The notes beneath the pieces were generated by a model. The model ran no database searches and was not told the DNA's origin. It saw only the letters and a list, made by a program, of their open reading frames with translations. From a virus: a stretch of 39,203 nucleotides of DNA. Every line of letters starts with the position of its first letter. Position 1 is the first letter of the stretch. The DNA lies in the UHGV virus genome UHGV-0043900; one strand, given 5' to 3'. Shown here in pieces: positions 50-39,153 of the stretch. Made by a program: the position numbers and the translations under genes.

Positions 50-2344
50 TCATAAAACCGTTTCATCCTTTGTGACGGACTCGTCGTTCTGAGCATCTTC
101 CACGTCTGCCGTAAATGCGCCGTCCACTGCCGACAACCGAATCCGGGCAACCGCCGTATTCGCCGCCATTTTCTGCAACAGCAGCAGGGAGAGCGGCGGC
201 AGCATATTGCCGTCGATGACCGATTCCAGCATCCTCGCGCCGTTTTCCGCGCGGGTGACGCGGCTCATGATTTCGTCCGTCACTTCCGGTTCTATAATCA
301 CCTCCGCGCCAAAGCGGCTGCGCAGCACGTTATCCAGGCGGGCCAGTTTCCCGGCAATGATGGTGGCGAGCGTCTCTTTCGACAGCGGCAGGTACGGCAC
401 CACTTCCATACGCGCCAGCAGGGCAGGTTTGAAGAAGTCGGCCAGCACCGGATACAGTACTTCCTGCATGGTTTCCGGGTCATCGGCATGCTCGACTATT
501 ACCTGGTAGCCGAGGTTGGACGTCAGGAAGAAGACGATATTTTTGCAGTCAATCAGGCGGCCTTCACCGTCTGCCATTTCGCCCTTATCGAACGCCTGGT
601 AGAACAGGTTGAGCACATCCGGGTGCGCTTTTTCCACTTCATCGAGCAGTACTACCGAGTAGGGTTTCTGGCGAATCGCTTCGGTCAGTACGCCGCCTTC
701 ACCGTAGCCAACGTAGCCCGGAGGCGAACCAATCAGTCGCGAGACGGTATGTTTCTCCTGGAACTCGGACATATTGATGGTGGTCAGGTACTGGCGACCG
801 CCGTAGAGCAGCTCTGCCAGTTGCAGGACGGTTTCAGTTTTACCCACGCCGCTGGGGCCAGCCAGCAGGAACGCGCCCAGCGGGCGTCCCGGACGGCGCA
901 GGTCGGCGCGTGCGGTCAGCAGGTGTTTGTGCAGGCTGGCAATCGCCAGGTCCTGGCCTTTGATGGTGTCGCCGAGCCATTTTGGCAGGTCGGTGATGAC
1001 CGACATTTCATTCTGCGACAGGCGGTTAAGCGGCACGCCGGTCCATTCGGCAATCACCGCCGCAATCTGTTTTTTATCGACGTGCGGGGAAACCAGCAAC
1101 CGGTCGTTATGCAGGGCGTCCAGTTCGGCAGTGAGATGTGCCAGACGTTGTACCGGGGAAACTGTTTCAGCGGTCTCTTCCGGCTGTTCTCTGTCGGCCT
1201 CATCAGCCGGTACGGCACCGGTATTATCCTGTTCTGACTCTGACTCTGGCTGCGTATCCTCCACGGTATCTGCGTCCGGCAACGGCGCCGCATCGTCCTC
1301 TGCCACGCCCAGTAACTGCTGGCGCAGCGCAATAATCTCCCGGACCAGCGTCTGCTGCTGGTGCCAGGCCGCTTCCAGTTCATCCAGCGCCGTCAGCGTT
1401 TCATCATACTGCACCAGCACCTCGGTCATCCGTGATGTGTCGGTACGCAGTCCGATGCGAAGCTCGCGCTCAAGCTGGCGAATTTCCGCCTCCTGCTGGT
1501 GGCTCAGAGTGGTCAGCGCCGAGATTTGCTTCGGCGGCGACGACAGGTTGATGGCCACACGGGCGCAGGCGGTATCCAGCACATCAATCGCTTTGTCCGG
1601 TAACTGACGCCCGGAGAGATAACGCTCGCTTAATGTCGCAGCGGCCTGCAAGGCGTCATCATCAATCAGCACGCCGTGAGACTGTTCATAGACCGCCGAC
1701 AGACCGCGCAGAATAATGGTGGCTTCGGCAGCGTTGGGTTCGCTGACCTTCACCAACTGGAAGCGGCGCGACAGGGCGGCATCTTTTTCGAAGTATTTTT
1801 TGTACTCGCTCCAGGTGGTGGCGGCGATGGTTTTCAGCTCGCCGCGCGCCAGCGCCGGTTTGAGCAGGTTGGAGATATCCAGCCCGCCCTGCTGGTTGCC
1901 CGCGCCAATCAGGGTATGTGCTTCGTCGATAAACAGAATGACCGGCACCGGGGAGGAAATGACCTCCGCCATCAGCCCTTTGAAACGTTTTTCGAATTCA
2001 CCCTTCACCGACGCCCCGGCCTGCAATGCGCCCAGGTCAAGGGTCATGATATCGGTGTTTTTCAGCTTGTCCGGCACCTGGCCTGCCACGATGCGCAGCG
2101 CCAGCCCTTCAATCAGTGCGCTTTTGCCCACGCCCGCTTCGCCCACCACCACCGGGTTGTTTTTACGGCGGCGGCAGAGAATGTCGATCATCAGGTCGAT
2201 TTCGTGGTCGCGGCACAGTACCGGGTCAAGCCTGCCGTTACGGGCGTCTGCGGTCATGTTTTTGGCATAGCGGGCAAGCAGGGTGTCAGAGGCGTCCGTC
2301 ATTGTGCCTGCGCCTTTACCGTCTGCATCCGGCTGATCAGACAT
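50..2344 (-). pseudogene. tssH: T6SS AAA+ ATPase ClpV/TssH, C-terminal ~760 codons; gene split by prophage insertion (host sequence ends ~2333)
   Basis: 764-aa ORF with two AAA+ modules (Walker A GEAGVGKS and GPSGVGKT) and ClpV-type motif FYQAFDKGEMADGEGR. It lacks the Clp N-domain, which lies at 38666-39153 on the same strand. First codons ATG-TCT-GAT are supplied by the prophage left end, with no obvious RBS. Confidence 0.85.
2328..2333. repeat. Target-site duplication, left copy (TCCGGC; 5 or 6 bp, ambiguous by one base)
   Basis: TCCGGC immediately precedes the TG terminus and recurs immediately after the CA terminus at 38666-38671. Both copies sit in the same clpV codon phase (CCG GAT). 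Confidence 0.5.
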
Positions 2345-2379
2345 GAGATAAATGAAGGGGGATCCGTGAGATAAATAAC
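2334..2379 (+). repeat. Prophage left terminal sequence with two putative transposase-binding sites
   Basis: TGATCAGACAT followed by GAGATAAAT at 2345-2353 and GAGATAAATAAC at 2368-2379, 23 bp apart. The right end carries the same arrangement in inverted orientation. Confidence 0.6.
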
Positions 2380-2456
2380 GAATTGGAGTGGGTTAACATG
2401 GGTTCTGGTGAACAGAACTGAAATTCTTTTTCGCTATACGATAGATAAGTCGGACA

Positions 2457-2486
2457 TTGAAATCATCCTTTCTGGCAACTTAGAAT
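2457..2486 (+). promoter_or_regulatory. Candidate sigma70-type promoter reading inward from the left end
   Basis: TTGAAA, 18-bp spacer, TAGAAT, about 45 nt upstream of the 2530 ATG. By-eye match only. Confidence 0.3.
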
Positions 2487-2529
2487 CGAGTTTGCTGAAA
2501 CATGACCCGTAACAAAAAGGATGATTCCA

Positions 2530-2691
2530 ATGACTACTCAAAACAATAAGCATGACAGCCTTGATTACTCAGAAAGGCCCAAAAGCAAGCACATCGTGAC
2601 GTTCGAGCGCGATTCCGGTAGAAAAGGAGAATCGTCTTCCTCTGCCAATAAAACCACTATGCCGGCAGCCCCTGCTCCAGGGAAAAAATAA
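2530..2691 (+). CDS. Small hydrophilic protein (53 aa), unknown function; below the ORF-track size cut-off
   Basis: ATG at 2530 preceded by AAGGA at a 9-nt spacing and a candidate promoter. Ends 3 nt from the stop of the convergent 2695-3327 gene. No recognisable motif. Confidence 0.3.
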   Translation: MTTQNNKHDSLDYSERPKSKHIVTFERDSGRKGESSSSANKTTMPAAPAPGKK

Positions 2692-2694
2692 ACA

Positions 2695-3327
2695 TCATTC
2701 ATCGTTCGTTGCACGAACGCGCCTGATCTCCACTCTGGCAATCTGATCTGCTGGAATATAGGTTGCCAGAGCTCCCCAGTACTTATCAACCACGCCTTTA
2801 TACTCTTCCCATTCGTTACTGCCTGAAGGGCTGCTGTGCGTGACGTAAAGAACCATATCGCCTTTATTCCCCAGGGTAAACGGACCGTTAGGCCACTCTT
2901 CAAAGTTCCCTGGCAGTCGTGACATCATACCGGAACCATCGCGAAGAATCACTCTGACCTCGGTAACGCTGAAGCCTGTTTGATCAAACATTGCCTGCCA
3001 TGCTGAGCTGGTATCGTCAGACCATGAAATATCATTATTCCACAGTAATCTGTACATCCATTTGCGACCGTACCTGCGCCACCACGCACCGCATGTAACG
3101 GCACACAGAAGTGCTGGTGGTGTTGCCAGCCAGGCATTCAGACCTGCCCACATAACTGCCTGGTAAGCCATCATTGCTGTCAGGCCAAAAATCAGCGAAG
3201 AAAAAGTCACCTCAATGGGCTTGTGGTGATCCTTCAGTCCCACATTCGCAATAAAATACCCAATATAGCCACTGGTCAGGGTCACCAGTGTTGCCCATGG
3301 CAGATTTAACAACGAAACGTCAAACAT
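2695..3327 (-). CDS. Membrane protein (three predicted TM helices plus ~110-aa soluble C-terminal domain), unknown function; last gene of the early arm
   Basis: ORF 2695-3405 with start reassigned to the ATG at 3327 (MFDVSLL...), preceded by AGGGAG. Hydrophobic segments LPWATLVTLTSGYIGYFIANVGL, IEVTFSSLIFGLTAMMAYQAVMWAGL and WLATPPALLCAVTCGAWW. No family recognised. Confidence 0.6.
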   Translation of the reverse strand: MFDVSLLNLPWATLVTLTSGYIGYFIANVGLKDHHKPIEVTFSSLIFGLTAMMAYQAVMWAGLNAWLATPPALLCAVTCGAWWRRYGRKWMYRLLWNNDISWSDDTSSAWQAMFDQTGFSVTEVRVILRDGSGMMSRLPGNFEEWPNGPFTLGNKGDMVLYVTHSSPSGSNEWEEYKGVVDKYWGALATYIPADQIARVEIRRVRATNDE

Positions 3328-3441
3328 ATTTTCTCCCTGCATCCTGAATACTAAAGAAAGAGCATAAAAAAAGCACGGTAAGGGGTCTACCGTGCTTTTA
3401 TACAATAAAGAGATTTTTGAAAGGACTTTAACAAGCAGGAA

Positions 3442-3840
3442 TTATCTGGATTTGTTAACGTCTTTCGTCTCCTCTGGCAGATCTTCATCAAACAACCTGC
3501 CCTGCATCCGATCCAGTTCTTCTTTTCTGACCCGCTTAACCACGCTGTAGACCCACTGAAGCGAAACACCAAACTTGCGGGCCAGTTCGTGGTGGTTGCG
3601 TCCGTTAAACTCCCTGAAGATTTCCCGGTCGCGCTGACTGACCTTCCATACCATGCCCATCGGGAAATAAACGTTTTGCCCGCCCCAGACCTGCATCATT
3701 CGGTTCGCGACGGCCTGACCAATCTGGTCGGCAATTGCGGGCTCAATATCAATAATCTCGCGAACGGTCTCAGAGGTATGCTGTGCCAGTTCCACCAGGA
3801 GTTCCGGCCCTTTACTTCGAAACTGATTCAGGTCGCTCAT
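3442..3840 (-). CDS. mor: Mor/C-family transcriptional activator (middle/late gene activator)
   Basis: 132 aa; C-terminal HTH region REIFREFNGRNHHELARKFGVSLQWVYSVVKRVR matches the Mor pattern; sits directly after the GemA-like gene as in Mu. Confidence 0.7.
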   Translation of the reverse strand: MSDLNQFRSKGPELLVELAQHTSETVREIIDIEPAIADQIGQAVANRMMQVWGGQNVYFPMGMVWKVSQRDREIFREFNGRNHHELARKFGVSLQWVYSVVKRVRKEELDRMQGRLFDEDLPEETKDVNKSR

Positions 3841-4264
3841 GTTTTACTCCCGCAGCTCTGCGCTGCCACTTCTTCAGTTTCTCAATAACACTGCTTGCCT
3901 GTTCAGTACTGAGCCAGCGCAGGGCGCTGATGCCCGTTTCCCGCTTGATCCACCGCGCTAATGCATTTTCTGAACGGTCACGAACAATGCCGGCAGCAGC
4001 CATTTCAAGCCATAGCGCACGGATTTTCCTGGACTGCGGATGGTTATCCAGCTGTAAACCGGAGCTGGCTTTTCCGGCAGGCTTAACGCGAAAGCCTTTC
4101 CTTTTCATGGATTCCAGCACGCAGTTTAGTTGTGTGGTATCCATTCCTTTGGTTGAGGCTTTACCGGTCAGCCCCTCTAACATCTGGCGGTAGGTGTCTT
4201 CATCCATACCCAGTTCATTACGGGCAATATGAATGAGCTGGATAAGACGTTGTTTAGTCATCAT
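3812..4264 (-). CDS. gemA: GemA-like protein (Mu gp16 / DUF1018 family)
   Basis: Motifs LIQLIHIARNELGMDEDTYRQML, KIRALWLEMAAAGIVRD and ALRWL...IEKLKKW typical of Mu gp16. Start set at ATG-ATG 4264 with AAAGGAG RBS. Confidence 0.75.
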   Translation of the reverse strand: MMTKQRLIQLIHIARNELGMDEDTYRQMLEGLTGKASTKGMDTTQLNCVLESMKRKGFRVKPAGKASSGLQLDNHPQSRKIRALWLEMAAAGIVRDRSENALARWIKRETGISALRWLSTEQASSVIEKLKKWQRRAAGVKHERPESVSK

Positions 4265-6538: not shown

Positions 6539-6729
6539 TGCGCGTCCTCCCTGTCAGGGCGGGAGAATTCCATGACGGGCACGTCCGCCGAAAAATGCTG
6601 GCTGCAGTACGGACAGACCAGGGTGACACGTACTGCAGGTACGTGGTACTTACCGGACATCACGGCGATGGCGCTGTGAAAACGCAGGGCTGTTATATCC
6701 CTCTCGCACTGAATACATTTAAATATCAT
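6535..6729 (-). CDS. Small zinc-ribbon protein (CxxC...CxxC)
   Basis: 64 aa with Cys pairs C5/C8 and C39/C42 (KCIQCERD ... CPYCSQHF). Confidence 0.45.
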   Translation of the reverse strand: MIFKCIQCERDITALRFHSAIAVMSGKYHVPAVRVTLVCPYCSQHFSADVPVMEFSRPDREDAQ

Positions 6730-12603: not shown

Positions 12604-12637
12604 CCGGAAAGCATTGTGCTTTCCGGTTTTGTTTCAG
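12604..12637 (+). terminator. Rho-independent terminator between convergent repressor and Dam genes
   Basis: 10-bp perfect stem CCGGAAAGCA/TGCTTTCCGG with 3-nt loop, followed by TTTTGTTT. Confidence 0.5.
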
Positions 12638-13398
12638 AAGTTGCAGATTACCAGTTCACGGCGCGGCGTGGGTTTCCCCGCCAGACTGTAGTTGATATTC
12701 ACCGTCTGTATGTTCAGTTCAGTGAACACCCGACGCATCTGCGGAATGTCATTCACCGAGATAATCATCTTTCCTCTGATGCACCGTGCCAGTTCTGCGA
12801 GTAGTGTGTAGTTCTCTTCAGGAAAATCCACACCATAGCCTTCCGTCCCCAGATAGGGCGGATCACAGTAGAACAGCGTGTGCGGACGGTCATAACGCTT
12901 AATGCACTGGTGCCAGTCCATGTGTTCTATCACCGTTCTGGAAAGCCGCAGGTGTGCCGCTGACAGTTCTTCTTCAATCCGGAGCAGGTTGAAGCGTGGC
13001 GGGGAGGTGGTGGAGGTGCCGAAGCTGTGCTCTGCCACCTTGCCCCCAAACGCCTGCTTCTGGAGGTAGTAGAACCGTGCCGCACGCTGGATATCCGTCA
13101 GTGTTTCTTCCGGGGTGATCTGCTGCCATTTGTAGATCTGCCGGCTAACCAGCGCCCATTTGAATTGGCGGACAAATTCTTCCAGATGATGCTTTACTAC
13201 CCGATACAGATTTACCAGTTCACCGTTGATATCGTTAATGACTTCGATCTTGCTGGGAGTCTTGAGAAAATAAAGTGCTGCTGCGCCGCAGAATGGCTCC
13301 ACATAGCAGGTATGGAGTGGGAACTGGGGCAGAATGTGTTTGGCCAGACGACGTTTTCCCCCAATCCAGGGGACGATGGGTAAAGATTGTTCTTTCAT
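12634..13398 (-). CDS. Orphan DNA adenine methyltransferase (Dam/D12-class N6-adenine MTase)
   Basis: N-terminal IVPWIGGKRRLAKHIL, FCGAAAL AdoMet motif and catalytic DPPY (LFYCDPPYLGTEGYG). Start set at the internal ATG 13398 (MKEQSLPIVPW). No restriction partner evident. Confidence 0.8.
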   Translation of the reverse strand: MKEQSLPIVPWIGGKRRLAKHILPQFPLHTCYVEPFCGAAALYFLKTPSKIEVINDINGELVNLYRVVKHHLEEFVRQFKWALVSRQIYKWQQITPEETLTDIQRAARFYYLQKQAFGGKVAEHSFGTSTTSPPRFNLLRIEEELSAAHLRLSRTVIEHMDWHQCIKRYDRPHTLFYCDPPYLGTEGYGVDFPEENYTLLAELARCIRGKMIISVNDIPQMRRVFTELNIQTVNINYSLAGKPTPRRELVICNF

Positions 13399-13445
13399 TA
13401 TCTGTAAGCCTTTTTCATTAGATGAAAATGCGATAGGCTTCCCTT

Positions 13446-13457
13446 GTTCTCGAGAAC
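13446..13457. promoter_or_regulatory. Perfect 12-bp palindrome GTTCTCGAGAAC in the Dam / paralog-1 divergent intergenic region (candidate operator)
   Basis: The duplicated cassette carries a different perfect 12-bp palindrome at the equivalent position (14081-14092), so dyad symmetry is preserved despite sequence change. Confidence 0.35.
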
Positions 13458-13500
13458 GGAAGAGCCTCGGTTGACTCACAGCTCATACCTGTAAGTTGAT

Positions 13501-13550
13501 GACTCGCCTTGTGTTCGCTGCACAAGGTGAGTCGCTCTTTTCATGTTATT
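13501..13550 (+). terminator. Strong hairpin plus U-rich tract upstream of paralog 1 (terminator or attenuator-like element)
   Basis: 13-bp stem GACTCGCCTTGTG/CACAAGGTGAGTC (one G-U pair), 7-nt loop, then GCTCTTTTCATGTTATTTG. The cassette copy at 14138-14181 has a different stem with the same architecture. Confidence 0.45.
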
Positions 13551-13592
13551 TGCATATTTCATGGGCGACAATTAAAGGGAGTTACTAATACC

Positions 13593-13973
13593 ATGGCCCC
13601 AAAAAATATTGAGCGGTTTAATGAAATAGTTGGTGAGATATTTGGGAGACTCTACGAATCTTTCCCCGTCAAAATTGATATAAAGGCAGTTGATATCGTT
13701 AGACAGAATGAACTTACTTTTTTTCTTGATACCGTAGACTGGCTTAAAAACAGTGGCTATTTAATCGGGGCGCGTAGTTCTGGGGGGATCCACAACGCAG
13801 TGCTAACGGCTAAAGGTCTTGAGGTATTAAACGCTACGCCTGGAAGTCTGGAAAAACCGTTGGGGGCCAGAATATCTGACTCTATAAAAATTGAAGGGAA
13901 AGAAGCGTTGCGATCACTGGTTAGCCAGACTCTAGGAATAGGTCTGCAATATATGTCTCGTGGTCTTATGTAA
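13593..13973 (+). CDS. Small protein of unknown function (127 aa), paralog 1 of a duplicated pair
   Basis: Internal ATG of ORF 13509-13973 with RBS AAAGGGAG. Shares FxxIxGxIFxRL, DTxxWL and VLTxKxLxxLNATP blocks with the protein at 14439-14843. AT-rich codon usage. Confidence 0.6.
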   Translation: MAPKNIERFNEIVGEIFGRLYESFPVKIDIKAVDIVRQNELTFFLDTVDWLKNSGYLIGARSSGGIHNAVLTAKGLEVLNATPGSLEKPLGARISDSIKIEGKEALRSLVSQTLGIGLQYMSRGLM

Positions 13974-14224: not shown

Positions 14225-14440
14225 TTATCCGGGGCGATTTTCTGACCTTATCTGGTCCAGGGCATAAGTAATACCTTCTGCAAAAACAGAAGTATCAAAC
14301 TGCTTTTGTATTTCCTGAAAATGAACTGTGGCACGACAGACACTCAGTTCTCCGCGATGTAACCGGATAATATCTTCCAGAACATTGTTCACTGCTTCAG
14401 CACGGCGCTGATGTTCTGTTAACGTTAATCGGGGATTCAT
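14225..14440 (-). CDS. Hypothetical 71-aa helical protein
   Basis: ORF whose ATG overlaps head-to-head with the ATG of the 14439 gene (CATGATG). No recognisable motif. Confidence 0.4.
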   Translation of the reverse strand: MNPRLTLTEHQRRAEAVNNVLEDIIRLHRGELSVCRATVHFQEIQKQFDTSVFAEGITYALDQIRSENRPG

Positions 14441-14843
14441 GATGCACTCCTTAAATGATGATTTTTATGCACTCACCGGCAAAATATTCTGCCGATTACT
14501 GAACACGCATCCGGCACCTCAGGTTTTGATTTATTCTGGTTTTTTCGATATCCCGGACCAGGTTGATCACGACCAGAAAAAGTGCCGGTATTTTATTGAT
14601 ACGCTGATATGGCTTCGGGATAACAGCTATATTCGTTACTCTCAGTTGCTGGCTGTGGGAGCGGCTGATGTCGTCCTCACGGAAAAAACGCTCCGTCTGC
14701 TCAATGCCACGCCGACCCTTCTGCAGCCCCGGCCCGCACCATTTAAAGAGTCACTTCTGGATGCAGTAAAAACCGGTGAAAATGCAGTCATCGCTGAACG
14801 CGTATCCCGGATTATGAGTTACGTGTTTAATGAACGTAAGTGA
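14439..14843 (+). CDS. Small protein of unknown function (134 aa), paralog 2 of the duplicated pair
   Basis: RBS GGGGA then ATG-ATG. Roughly 25-30% identity by eye to paralog 1 over conserved blocks. 3' end overlaps the convergent P-loop gene by 25 nt. Confidence 0.6.
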   Translation: MMHSLNDDFYALTGKIFCRLLNTHPAPQVLIYSGFFDIPDQVDHDQKKCRYFIDTLIWLRDNSYIRYSQLLAVGAADVVLTEKTLRLLNATPTLLQPRPAPFKESLLDAVKTGENAVIAERVSRIMSYVFNERK

Positions 14844-15634: not shown

Positions 15635-15673
15635 TTAAAATCCTTCGCGCCCTGTATTTGTGATGCTGTCTCC
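15635..15673 (+). promoter_or_regulatory. Candidate activator-dependent late promoter of the lysis operon
   Basis: TTAAAATC-N23-CTGTCTCC with inner CTGTATTT, about 20 nt upstream of the holin ATG. The same bipartite motif at identical spacing occurs at 23030-23068. Confidence 0.4.
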
Positions 15674-15692
15674 ACCAGATAAGGAGACACAC

Positions 15693-16043
15693 ATGAAAAA
15701 CCTGAAAACATTCATTCCCCCTGTTAAAAAACCTCGCCTCAGCGGCTGGCTGCTGACCTCAGTGCTGTTGCTGGGCACCATCGCTCTGGTCTCACCACAG
15801 CAACTGCCTGTTGTGATCTACAAGCTGGCACTCATCACGCTGGCAGCAGTGCTGGGTTACTGGCTTGACCGTTCGCTCTTCCCCAAAGCCCGTCCCGGTC
15901 AGTACCTGAAACATGACGACAGGCTGATGGCTGAAGGGCGTTTCCCGGTACAGACCGGCCTTCACCTGGTGTTTTCTGCTGCGTTAATCCGCCGTGCACT
16001 GATTGTTGCAGCGGTCTGCCTGGCTGTTGCGATGGGGCTTTAA
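15693..16043 (+). CDS. Putative holin (three predicted TM segments)
   Basis: Internal ATG of ORF 15660-16043 with RBS AAGGAGA; 116 aa, three hydrophobic helices; immediately upstream of the endolysin. Confidence 0.55.
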   Translation: MKNLKTFIPPVKKPRLSGWLLTSVLLLGTIALVSPQQLPVVIYKLALITLAAVLGYWLDRSLFPKARPGQYLKHDDRLMAEGRFPVQTGLHLVFSAALIRRALIVAAVCLAVAMGL

Positions 16044-16045
16044 TC

Positions 16046-16786
16046 ATGAACTGGCCGCAGATCACCTGGATTGTATGCATGTCCCTGAAACTGGCTTTCG
16101 AAGCCTTTCGGGTCTTCATCAGAACCGAACGCCTGTCAGTCCGCGCCGGGACCTTTCTGGTTCATATGGCATGGGTATTCTTTGTCGCAATATTGCTCTG
16201 GTGTGGCGGCTTTTTCAGCCAGGCATGCGCAGCACAACCTCCGCAGGCTGCGCTGCAGTATCGCGATGATGTGATCCGTAATGCCCGGCTTGAATGGGGA
16301 CTGTCTGCGCCGGTGGCCGACTTTGCCGCGCAACTGCATCAGGAAAGCGGCTGGCGACCTGATGCGGTCTCACCGGCTGGCGCTCAAGGACTGGCGCAGT
16401 TCATGCCTGCCACTGCCGACTGGATAAGCCAGTTGATACCGATGCTGAGCAGTCGTGAGCCGTTTAATCCTGCATGGGCTATCCGGGCGCTGGTCAGCTA
16501 TGACCGCTGGCTGTGGCAGCGCGTCAGCGCCGCCAACGACTGCGAGCGTATGGCCATGACACTGTCGGGCTATAACGGTGGTCTGGGCTGGGTACAACGG
16601 GACAGGCGGCTTGCATCACAGAAAGGTCTGGACAGCACCCGCTGGTTTGGTCATGTCGCCACGGTGAATGCCGGACGCAATGCGGCCAGCTGGCGGGAGA
16701 ACCGTCATTATCCGCAACGCATTCTGCGTGAGCTGGCACCGCGATATCTCACATGGGGAGGCAGCAGTTGTGTGGCATCTGGTTAA
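16046..16786 (+). CDS. Endolysin: lytic transglycosylase (SLT domain) with hydrophobic N-terminal signal or SAR-like segment
   Basis: SLT motifs EWGLSAPVADFAAQLHQESGWRPDAVSPAGAQGLAQFMPATADWI; N-terminal hydrophobic stretch MAWVFFVAILLWCGGFFSQACAA. Confidence 0.8.
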   Translation: MNWPQITWIVCMSLKLAFEAFRVFIRTERLSVRAGTFLVHMAWVFFVAILLWCGGFFSQACAAQPPQAALQYRDDVIRNARLEWGLSAPVADFAAQLHQESGWRPDAVSPAGAQGLAQFMPATADWISQLIPMLSSREPFNPAWAIRALVSYDRWLWQRVSAANDCERMAMTLSGYNGGLGWVQRDRRLASQKGLDSTRWFGHVATVNAGRNAASWRENRHYPQRILRELAPRYLTWGGSSCVASG

Positions 16787-38480: not shown

Positions 38481-38623
38481 TGAATATATGCATTTCTGTT
38501 ACAGGTTAGTTGATACAAAAGAATAACATGGATATTTACAAGTGATGAGGCCAGGGTTAAGGTTTGAAGCTATTGTGTAAAATTGCAATTCTTTTTCAAT
38601 ATCCGTAACGTAAAGCTTGTTCC

Positions 38624-38665
38624 ATTTATCTCGCTTTTTTGTGTTATTTATCTCGCGCCGCATCA
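38624..38665 (-). repeat. Prophage right terminal sequence with two putative transposase-binding sites (inverted relative to left end)
   Basis: Reverse complement reads TGATGCGGCGC-GAGATAAATAAC-N10-GAGATAAATGG. First site is 11 bp from the terminus, as at the left end; sites are 22 bp apart. Confidence 0.6.
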
Positions 38666-39153
38666 TCCGGCACGACTGATTCCGCCGACTCCTGTGTCCA
38701 CTGCACAAAGTCCTGTTGCAGACGGTCACGGTTAATGCCGGTCAACAGCCGGGCGGCAGCAGGCGGTATATAACGCAGCGGCGAATGCAGCAGGGCCAGC
38801 AGCAACACGCCGCCGCGCAGTTCGCTGTGCTGCATCTCAGCCGACGCCAGCAGCCAGCCCTCTTTAAGCCACTCAACCAGCATCGGGGAAAACGCCGGGT
38901 AGCTGTCCGCAGAACGGGCGGTTGTGTAGTTCTCTACCGTCAGCGCCTGGCGCAACTCTTCCATGCCAATATCGCCCTGGCGGGTAATAACCCGCAGGTC
39001 ACTGCGTGGCATGGCGAGCATCTGAATGAGCACATGGCTGACGGTAATTTCCGCTGCCTGCTGACTCATACATTCAGAGGCGGCCATCTCCAGCGCCTGG
39101 CGGGAGAACAGGTTCAGCCGTTTTACCAGCGTGGGAAGATCAATCTGGATCAT
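38644..39153 (-). pseudogene. tssH: ClpV/TssH N-terminal fragment (Clp N-domain); host part 38666-39153, ORF runs ~22 nt into the prophage right end before a stop
   Basis: 169-aa ORF with strong RBS (AAGGA) and a Clp_N-like sequence (LNLFSRQALEMAASECMSQQAAEITVSHVLIQML...GGVLLLALL). Joining 39153..38672 to 2333..50 in silico gives one continuous frame (...ESAESVVPDADGKGAG...). Confidence 0.8.
38666..38671. repeat. Target-site duplication, right copy (TCCGGC)
   Basis: Direct repeat of 2328-2333 abutting the prophage CA-3' terminus. Confidence 0.5.

Follow-up and report, generated by a model that had tools for sequence, protein, structure and literature searches.

Why should a transposable phage carry, at its very end, two genes that run into each other from opposite sides? 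The window analysed here, a stretch of 39,203 nucleotides (nt) catalogued as the virus genome UHGV-0043900, is Escherichia coli chromosome with a 36.3-kb BcepMu-type transposable (Mu-like) prophage at 2334-38666, inserted in clpV. Just inside the left end of this prophage, a gene for a 53-aa hydrophilic, basic protein (2530-2691, plus strand) meets a gene for a 210-aa inner-membrane protein (2695-3327, minus strand). An earlier note on this DNA had treated the two open reading frames (ORFs) as separate items; we find instead that they are one conserved convergent pair, which also occurs outside phages. That both are real genes, that together they constitute a conserved convergent module, and that this module is accessory cargo, we hold with high confidence. 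As to what the pair does, we tentatively propose an exclusion, abortive-infection or addiction-type conflict module, a role that we regard as possible rather than probable. Joined into a single statement, that of an accessory convergent module with a conflict function, the proposal strikes us as evenly poised between right and wrong.

The convergent pair and its conservation

The smaller gene encodes MTTQNNKHDSLDYSERPKSKHIVTFERDSGRKGESSSSANKTTMPAAPAPGKK, annotated in RefSeq as a hypothetical protein (WP_171840579.1). Its product has a grand average of hydropathy of -1.41, an isoelectric point (pI) of 9.8 and a proline/lysine tail; it bears no folded-domain signature and is probably disordered. 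Summed over pairs of variants, pN/pS is 0.26 in this frame, which contains no stop codon, and 0.36-2.6 in the five other frames, which contain stops. Variable sites fall 7, 9 and 22 times on codon positions 1, 2 and 3, and the window and the variant at locus L029 differ by 15 synonymous and 6 non-synonymous changes (P = 1.5e-6 under neutrality). Across four E. coli variants at dS 0.2-0.65, dN/dS lies between 0.08 and 0.52. Judged by these substitution patterns, the 53-aa ORF is a real gene under purifying selection. Its conserved start is the ATG at 2530; an alternative start codon at 2521 was rejected, as it is not kept in relatives. Direct database matches of the protein are confined to close relatives, and a profile built from 21 such small proteins reached 26 database clusters, all labelled 'hypothetical' and none with a Pfam domain.

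The larger gene, likewise a hypothetical protein in RefSeq, had been described from its sequence as encoding three transmembrane (TM) helices and a soluble domain of about 110 aa, and this description holds. The AlphaFold2 model (pLDDT 84.8) has uncharged hydrophobic helices at residues 11-28, 37-60 and 65-97, with mean Kyte-Doolittle values of 0.9-1.3, and the three predicted TM segments map to 3241-3303, 3148-3210 and 3079-3138 on the minus strand. A basic RRYGRK anchor follows TM3 and leads into a beta-rich domain of about 110 aa, predicted to be an acidic small beta-barrel in the cytoplasm (2698-3027, minus strand), whose pI of 4.7 stands opposite the 9.8 of the small protein. The positive-inside rule would place the N-terminus in the periplasm and the C-terminal domain in the cytoplasm. 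The N-terminus carries a conserved M-x-D-x-x-L-L-N-L-P-W motif, and dN/dS of the gene is 0.08-0.11 among E. coli variants, so low a ratio that the membrane gene, too, is by this measure genuine and under purifying selection. Both ORFs are annotated in RefSeq.

Homologues of the membrane protein form a sizeable family, with 72 clusters in a word-indexed search and 521 representatives at 50% identity in an exhaustive hidden Markov model search. Of these representatives, 430 match at E <= 1e-10, and nearly all are 200-215 aa long and share one architecture. Invariant or nearly invariant residues are found in TM1 (P10, W11, G20, Y21, Y24, G30), in the first cytoplasmic loop (H34, H35) and in the C-terminal domain (S101, D104, D157, Y161, T163, H164, R202). 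Searches of Pfam, NCBIfam and PADLOC gave no match for either the 210-aa or the 53-aa protein, and a sequence profile search of the PDB gave no assignment either. In BFVD, Foldseek returned one uncharacterised siphovirus protein of the same size and weak holin-like matches to the TM region (LydA-type and others, E 0.02-0.7). A blastn search in distant mode of the region against 50,697 phage records found no match; at the protein level, the only match in those records is a 29%-identical homologue of the membrane protein (E 4e-21) in Synechococcus phage Ssp-JY41 (PP438431.1, 1-744; our locus L020). That homologue is the outermost gene of a 20-kb cyanophage record, which stops at the gene and has no obvious Mu-like features.

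The nearest curated family is Pfam DUF6338 (PF19865), which consists of uncharacterised integral membrane proteins. The window's own protein has no match to the DUF6338 model at E <= 1, and the best-scoring relatives have 23.9-25.9 bits against a gathering threshold of 26.5; such sub-threshold matches were obtained for 19 of 34 close relatives (E down to 8.5e-6) and 5 of 40 distant representatives. The profile has 205 positions, close to the 210 aa of our protein, and the match is co-linear, protein residues 43-136 aligning with profile positions 54-143 of 205, a partial coverage that spans TM2 and TM3 and runs into the start of the C-terminal domain. Because the scores fall below the cut-off, we file the family as a sister group of DUF6338 and not as a member of it; on these profile scores, it is a distant sister. 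The earlier verdict of no recognised family thus stands for Pfam and NCBIfam and needs amending in two respects: the two proteins fall in PHROG families of unknown function (12870 and 15726, the 53-aa protein in phrog_15726), and relatives of the membrane protein reach 24-26 bits on DUF6338. Since DUF6338 itself has no known function, membership would explain nothing. DUF6338 has been reported from biosynthetic gene clusters, and in Pseudomonas stutzeri three small proteins of 36-47 aa, abundant and rich in proline, are encoded after a DUF6338 gene and were found by mass spectrometry (PMC10433244). The small ORFs there are co-directional and downstream, in contrast to the convergent arrangement of the prophage pair; by analogy, the case offers an independent hint that such membrane proteins may work with proline-rich mini-proteins.

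The two genes of the window lie tail to tail with their stop codons 3 nt apart, and this arrangement recurs widely. We collected loci with relatives of the membrane protein from reference genomes, IMG/VR and exact-protein look-ups and inspected the region past the 3' end of each membrane gene. A convergent small ORF of 33-66 aa, hydrophilic and with a Pro/Lys tail, is present at about 25 of about 30 distinct loci; the stop-to-stop distance is between -19 and +7 nt in nearly all of them, with one at +43. Among enterobacterial Mu-like prophages, a convergent ORF of 46-53 aa was found in Citrobacter braakii, Serratia sp. Ag1 (two copies), Symbiopectobacterium, Salmonella enterica diarizonae and many IMG/VR contigs. 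These small proteins start with M-[TSN]-x-[KQ]-x-[ND], contain [DE][YF][ST]E.PK and a V-T-F-E-like stretch, and end in PP.P.(G)KK or PPP.RD. Pairs also occur in alpha-proteobacteria (Afipia, several Bradyrhizobium, Devosia riboflavina, a Rhizobiaceae metagenome-assembled genome, Allosphingosinicella) and in several unassigned viral contigs, with membrane proteins 34-47% identical to that of the window and chromosomal copies that lie in no Mu-like prophage. Their small ORFs encode 33-66 aa with two or three [NS][YFH].P.T motifs and a tail of PPPSPKKK, PPKPKK or PKPPGK, the codons of which differ synonymously between loci. Outside the close Afipia and Bradyrhizobium relatives, the small ORF is the sole conserved neighbour of the membrane gene. 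The type of C-terminal domain and the type of small protein vary together between cassettes: in strain NRZ14408 both are of a different type behind the same promoter. The recurrence of the tail-to-tail pairing across loci indicates that the two genes are one conserved convergent module, found outside phages as well, and not independent cargo.

Either gene can decay without the other. No small ORF accompanies the membrane gene in four prophages of insect symbionts or their relatives, or at one locus of unknown context. In three of these prophages, those of Pantoea persica (L006, around 6609-6680), Phlomobacter (L015) and a Symbiopectobacterium-like contig (L053), we take the small ORF to have been deleted, because the -35 region of its promoter (ATTGAAATCATC) persists beside the stop codon of the membrane gene; in the fourth, an Arsenophonus prophage (L007), the stretch examined holds neither a small ORF nor a -35 remnant. 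The membrane genes of L006 and L007 lack four residues of the basic anchor after TM3. Conversely, at three Bradyrhizobium loci (L013, 2053-2656; L014, 5974-6598; L016, 1679-2280) the membrane gene is frameshifted and the small ORF intact, and the L014 small ORF is identical in protein sequence to that of L021, a strain with an intact partner. As a pattern of decay, a frameshifted membrane gene beside an intact small ORF resembles toxin loss.

Within the phage, the pair occupies a cassette of about 1 kb (2445-3441) between the transposase-binding end and the stop codon of Mor, and this cassette is dispensable. BcepMu has no gene beyond Mor, and Klebsiella phage KP12 and E. coli phage PhiKM, whose Mor proteins are 91-93% identical to this one, have neither gene and carry other small ORFs instead. 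In a widespread prophage next to ycaL in sequence type ST131, Mor lies about 140 bp from host DNA and the cassette is missing, and most E. coli prophages with a ~97%-identical Mor are without the pair. This type of Mor and GemA occurs in 640 of 5,426 complete E. coli genomes and a near-identical cassette in 118. On this record of presence and absence, we class the pair as accessory cargo of the prophage end, as the earlier note had supposed. It resembles a moron in the sense of Hendrix and Juhala: it lies between conserved phage features, is missing from close relatives, and has a promoter for one of its genes, terminators that would insulate it and possibly expression apart from the phage programme. 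It differs from a standard moron in being a convergent pair with a recognisable promoter for the small gene only and a terminator upstream of the larger gene, and in that the same gene pair is also found outside phages. Accessory cassettes in plasticity regions of Mu-like phages are already known (Cazares et al. 2014, PMC4378225). Some E. coli variants have another occupant of the same slot, an 80-aa gene of no known family (MFMRNCGLRGCIAYSEPD...SPPPRD) between Mor and the terminator, at 3894-4136 in L026, at the same coordinates in L027 and L028, and at 2677-2919 in L072.

Expression signals of the two genes

The small gene has a near-consensus sigma-70 promoter on the plus strand (TTGAAA at 2457-2462, an 18-nt spacer and TAGAAT at 2481-2486; 10 of 12 consensus matches) and a Shine-Dalgarno (SD) sequence, AAGGA, at 2517-2521, 8 nt before the ATG. 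The note had pointed to these signals, and comparison across five genera (Escherichia, Citrobacter, Serratia, Symbiopectobacterium and Salmonella diarizonae) bears them out: the hexamers, their spacing and the SD are kept in 11 of 13 enterobacterial loci despite diverged flanks. Ahead of the promoter, reading inward from the host flank, lies a terminator-like hairpin, GGTTCTGGTGAACAGAACT (2401-2419), followed by a T-rich tail to 2429, which would halt read-in transcription before it reaches the small gene.

Overlapping the promoter is a second structure. A 20-nt inverted repeat, 90% complementary, joins an upstream arm, CATTGAAATCATCCTTTCTG (2455-2474, plus strand), which overlaps the -35 hexamer and the spacer, to a downstream arm, CAAAAAGGATGATTCCAATG (2513-2532, plus strand), which holds the SD and the start codon. 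In an alignment of nine distinct sequences this fold-back comprises 14 pairs, with 91% of cells paired. Compensatory double changes are seen at four pairs, for example U-A to C-G (4:3 split) and TTGAAA/TTCCAA to TTGTAA/TTACAA. None of 500 shuffles reached the covariation score, and in slid registers pairing falls to 29-55%. Because transcripts from the gene's own promoter are expected to start downstream of the first arm, the fold-back would form only in RNA initiated outside the element, and would thus occlude the SD and AUG in read-in transcripts and nowhere else. Such protection fits this phage, since it inserts at random and read-in transcription varies from site to site. A similar device, fold-back inhibition, reportedly shields the transposase gene of IS10/Tn10 from external promoters (Davis, Simons and Kleckner 1985). 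Like IS10, the prophage has a segment upstream of the gene's own predicted transcription start that is complementary to the SD and AUG of an end-proximal, inward-reading gene, and both elements insert at random and meet variable read-in. There is no sequence relationship, however; the protected gene here encodes a 53-aa accessory protein and not a transposase, and an additional terminator-like hairpin precedes it. Whatever the function of the pair, the fold-back suggests that transposable phages, like IS10, guard end-proximal genes from read-in at random insertion sites.

The membrane gene is placed very differently. Between it and Mor lies a strong intrinsic terminator, AAAAGCACGGTAGACCCCTTACCGTGCTTTT followed by TTTTTTT (3362-3399, minus strand; 13-bp stem at 3399-3369 plus T7). 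In six further variants from E. coli, Citrobacter, Serratia and Salmonella, including those with the extra 80-aa gene, a terminator with other stem sequences is kept 30-45 nt upstream of the membrane gene. None is found at this place in alpha-proteobacteria or in phages in which the gene is coupled to an upstream ORF; because it is missing at these other module loci, we regard the hairpin at 3369-3399 as the terminator of the early operon and not as part of the module. We also considered whether the hairpin might serve Mor as the binding dyad of a middle promoter resembling Pm of Mu, and rejected the idea: the window has only one such dyad, and relatives share no conserved -10 element downstream of it. 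On the minus strand no sigma-70 promoter of at least 9 of 12 consensus matches was found for the membrane gene, and the stretch between terminator and start codon contains no promoter conserved among relatives. Because a terminator precedes the gene and no promoter was found, read-through from the early operon is probably the only source of the membrane protein, an arrangement that renders its previous description as the last early-arm gene doubtful. At three loci (L054, L056 and L059) the membrane gene is translationally coupled to the upstream early gene.

Tail-to-tail placement also brings the two transcripts together. Stop codons 3 nt apart leave no space for an intervening terminator, so the two mRNAs must overlap in antisense. 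On the plus strand no terminator was found past the small gene before 3369-3399; transcription from the small gene probably continues through the entire membrane gene as far as this A/T-flanked hairpin, which may act weakly in both directions owing to the A-tract on its other side. An Rfam scan of 2250-3900 gave sub-threshold noise only.

Possible functions of the pair

We propose that the two products oppose each other. In this model, the small protein would be made constitutively from its own promoter and insulated from host read-in by the hairpin and the fold-back, and the membrane protein would be subject to attenuated, lytic-phase expression, appearing only by read-through when the early operon fires; the transcripts of the two genes would be mutually antisense. 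With the beta-barrel and the small protein both in the cytoplasm and of complementary charge, the membrane protein could act as an effector that perturbs the envelope or membrane, and the small protein, together with its antisense transcript, as the antagonist or regulator that docks on the barrel and gates the effector. Docking might involve a short strand-forming motif together with the proline/basic tail, much as Sm/SH3-like barrels take linear peptides. For its mobile element, the pair would then provide exclusion, abortive infection or addiction. Contextual support comes from its carriage by phages, from a Bradyrhizobium island in which a resolvase-type HTH_7 gene lies upstream of the pair, from Allosphingosinicella, where a pair of DUF4411 and Peptidase_M78 (ImmA-like) genes adjoins it, and from the decay that looks like toxin loss.

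Several observations weigh against a conflict function, which we draw from architecture and context. Convergent orientation is atypical of protein-protein toxin-antitoxin pairs. Neither protein matches a family in the PADLOC-DB v2 defence models at E <= 1, and neither matched toxin families or exclusion proteins in the searches made. Gamma- and alpha-proteobacterial small proteins share only 18-33% sequence identity, and are linked as homologues by position, composition and the C-terminal motif. The variation of C-terminal domain and small protein in step could reflect mere physical linkage. Finally, three insect-symbiont prophages retain an apparently intact membrane gene without the small ORF, which argues against an obligate antitoxin role unless these membrane genes are silent or crippled.

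Comparison with known systems yields partial likenesses. In the type I toxin-antitoxin systems txpA/RatA and bsrG/SR4 of Bacillus subtilis prophages, the antitoxin RNA is convergent with the toxin gene and overlaps its 3' end. As in those systems, a predicted membrane-targeted product is opposed by a convergent gene with a strong, constitutive promoter and a 3' overlap, on a prophage. Here, however, the membrane protein has 210 aa and a folded cytoplasmic domain instead of being a peptide under 60 aa, and the opposing transcript, without a match in Rfam, encodes a conserved protein under selection; with no small hydrophobic toxin and no non-coding antisense RNA, the pair shares only the 3'-overlap geometry and is no type I system. 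Nor does it qualify as type II, as the genes are convergent and neither has a match in Pfam, NCBIfam or PADLOC. Inner-membrane superinfection-exclusion and abortive-infection proteins of temperate phages, such as P22 SieA, lambda RexB and T4 Imm, resemble our protein in being small, multi-pass, encoded on accessory prophage DNA and dispensable for the phage. They differ from it in that no sequence or fold similarity was found, and in that our membrane gene lacks a lysogen-type promoter, sits behind a terminator and has a partner that is convergent and not co-transcribed.

The geometry shared with txpA/RatA and bsrG/SR4, both of which are precedents for it, leads to the alternative that survives best, unlikely as we think it: that RNA from the small gene's promoter silences the membrane gene in lysogens, through duplex formation, RNase III or transcriptional interference, and that the peptide is secondary. 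Stop codons 3 nt apart here, and coding overlaps of up to 19 nt elsewhere, make the 3' ends of the mRNAs complementary; the promoter is strong and conserved, and the plus strand is free of terminators until 3369-3399. Against this, the peptide frame is selected and its motifs are kept where the DNA has diverged to saturation, a covarying structure that protects the SD and AUG makes sense only if translation matters, and the 'toxin' would be a 210-aa two-domain protein and no small hydrophobic peptide. Antisense control is compatible with a conflict module in which the small protein acts, as an added layer.

A second alternative, which we think rather improbable, is that the two are independent pieces of cargo, the membrane gene being the last early gene and the small ORF an unrelated moron, each with a conversion or exclusion function of its own. 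Both the status of the region as cargo and the small gene's separate promoter, as found here, agree with this idea, as does translational coupling of the membrane gene to the upstream gene of the same operon in L054, L056 and L059. But unrelated morons are not expected to stay linked, and the tail-to-tail pairing persists at about 25 of 30 loci in two proteobacterial classes and in non-phage contexts; a conserved terminator, besides, parts the membrane gene from Mor.

Still less probable in our view is that the small protein is a substrate or cargo that the membrane protein processes, modifies or exports, as with a RiPP-like (ribosomally synthesised and post-translationally modified peptide) or signalling peptide for communication between cells or phages. 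Repeated short motifs ([NS][YFH].P.T in alpha-, [DE][YF][ST]E.PK in gamma-proteobacteria) and a conserved tail would suit such a peptide, the invariant polar residues H35, S101, D104, D157, Y161, T163 and H164 would suit a processing protein, and DUF6338 genes in biosynthetic clusters and beside abundant proline-rich small proteins (PMC10433244) point the same way. Yet the membrane protein has no similarity to peptidases, transporters or RiPP enzymes by sequence or fold, the very hydrophilic small peptide has no leader or signal features, and three TM helices with a small beta-barrel are a thin basis for export.

A lysis-timing accessory, with a holin- or pinholin-like membrane protein and the small protein as antiholin, is very improbable. 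It is suggested by the weak Foldseek matches of the TM region to holins, by a weak match of one distant family member to Phage_holin_9 and by the position of the membrane gene downstream of the lytic early operon; but the holin matches are at the level expected of any small TM bundle, no holin PHROG or Pfam family matches the protein, and the gene lies outside the lysis cassette. The phage, moreover, has a holin (15660-16043; phrog_1528, E 2e-54) and an endolysin (16046-16786) of its own among its rightward-reading late genes, its relatives BcepMu, KP12 and PhiKM are viable without the cassette, and the pair also resides in phage-free chromosomes. That the 53-aa ORF is spurious, the conserved DNA being only promoter, terminator or transposase-binding sequence, we consider most unlikely. 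In favour of this reading, the ORF is small and of low complexity, borders the transposase-binding end and is matched by profile searches only to the 26 hypothetical clusters. Yet it is the sole stop-free frame of six, with the third-position bias and pN/pS given above; genera whose dS is saturated still maintain an open frame of comparable length, a conserved SD stands at a suitable distance from the start codon, and the transposase-binding repeats stop at 2440, 90 nt before that codon.

About 2% of complete E. coli genomes, pandemic ST131 among them, have the pair, and it is known also from Salmonella, Klebsiella, Serratia, insect symbionts and rhizobia. If the conflict reading is true, it represents a new family of conflict or regulatory modules of mobile elements, with an unusual architecture, a membrane protein and a disordered mini-protein encoded stop to stop. 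A bolder and more doubtful extension is that it is the founding case of a widely distributed conflict system, in which a 3-TM/Sm-like-barrel effector would be held by a disordered mini-protein and antisense RNA, loss or titration of these on infection or loss of the element would free the effector, and an IS10-like fold-back would make dosage independent of the insertion site. As far as our searches show, the specific pair, its stop-to-stop architecture across two proteobacterial classes and a fold-back on an end-proximal accessory gene are undescribed; the literature on the ST131 prophage and on what transposable phages carry at their ends yielded no more than general background. The pair also provides a handle on the function-less DUF6338-like proteins (521 clusters at 50% identity), and a selected, conserved protein of about 50 aa joins the short list of functional bacterial small proteins. 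Should the cassette prove inert, it would be an ordinary prophage moron of unknown function.

The prophage ends and neighbouring genes

The limits of the element are well defined. A 100%-identical copy over the region is inserted in adeP in strain IGC_RcoliRes_1.1 (NZ_CP054662), and because identity between that copy and the window begins exactly at TGATCAGACATGAGATAAAT, we place the left end at 2334. The termini are 5'-TG at 2334 and CA at 38666, where the right end reads ...GCCGCATCA, and the insertion is flanked by a 6-bp target-site duplication, TCCGGC (2328-2333, the left copy, in clpV, and 38667-38672), read from the sequence and in agreement with the adeP junction. Repeats of the form GAGATAAAT occur twice per prophage end and are inverted between the ends: the left terminus (2334-2376, plus strand) has two putative transposase-binding repeats, TGAGATAAAT, at 2344-2353 and 2367-2376, and the right end has their mirror copies at 38624-38632 and 38646-38654. 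The insertion site differs by strain, the same phage being found elsewhere near adeP, tar/cheW, cysJ, hofQ and ycaL. TG...CA ends, inverted repeats, a duplication and a variable site are together what is seen in a BcepMu-type transposable prophage, and the gene content agrees. The early arm, on the minus strand, runs from a repressor region near 12 kb through genes for a DDE transposase, an ExeA/MuB-like ATPase, Gam, DUF2786, GemA and Mor to the left end, identified from RefSeq and Pfam. Mor, a transcription activator (3442-3840, minus strand; PF08765, E 1e-43), is the last conserved gene of this arm, as it is in BcepMu, where Mor is gp01, the terminal gene (389-721, minus strand).

Further inward, a conserved 19-nt site, AATTCTTTTTCGCTATACG (2422-2440, plus strand), has a second copy in the same orientation at 38587-38605. 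The motif, AATTCTTTTTCnnTATnCG, is therefore direct and not inverted near the two phage ends, where no occurrence is expected by chance, and divergent relatives have a related form at the equivalent position. The motif may serve as a third site for transposase or as one for a host factor. Because this site is the inner limit of the conserved phage end, the cargo begins just inside 2440.

Past the immunity region, a gene for a DNA adenine methyltransferase (12634-13479, minus strand; phrog_56, E 9e-98) lies before the late genes and opposite the late operon, and is unrelated to the pair. Two paralogous ORFs of phrog_2266, a family of unknown function (13509-13973 and 14439-14843), open the late arm; the ~450 bp between them contain no listed ORF of at least 110 aa. 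Outside the phage, insertion has cut clpV, which encodes a ClpV-type AAA+ ATPase of type VI secretion, in two, leaving a 764-aa ORF at 50-2344 and a 169-aa ORF at 38644-39153 (minus strand). The ATG at 2344 that opens the former lies within the phage end and is therefore fortuitous. From this disruption, the type VI secretion system of the strain is probably inactivated by the prophage.

A relic of the phage end is also carried by plasmids. A stretch of 145 bp corresponding to window positions 2343-2487, at about 90% identity, occurs in 70 conjugative IncF/ColV-type plasmids, 66 from E. coli and 4 from Klebsiella. In the one plasmid examined, p1ColV5155 (L069, 2501-2644), the relic has no annotated genes, shows no phage beyond it and is flanked by ORFs resembling insertion-sequence transposases. 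Retained in the relic are the promoter of the small gene, the hairpin ahead of it and the transposase-binding repeats.

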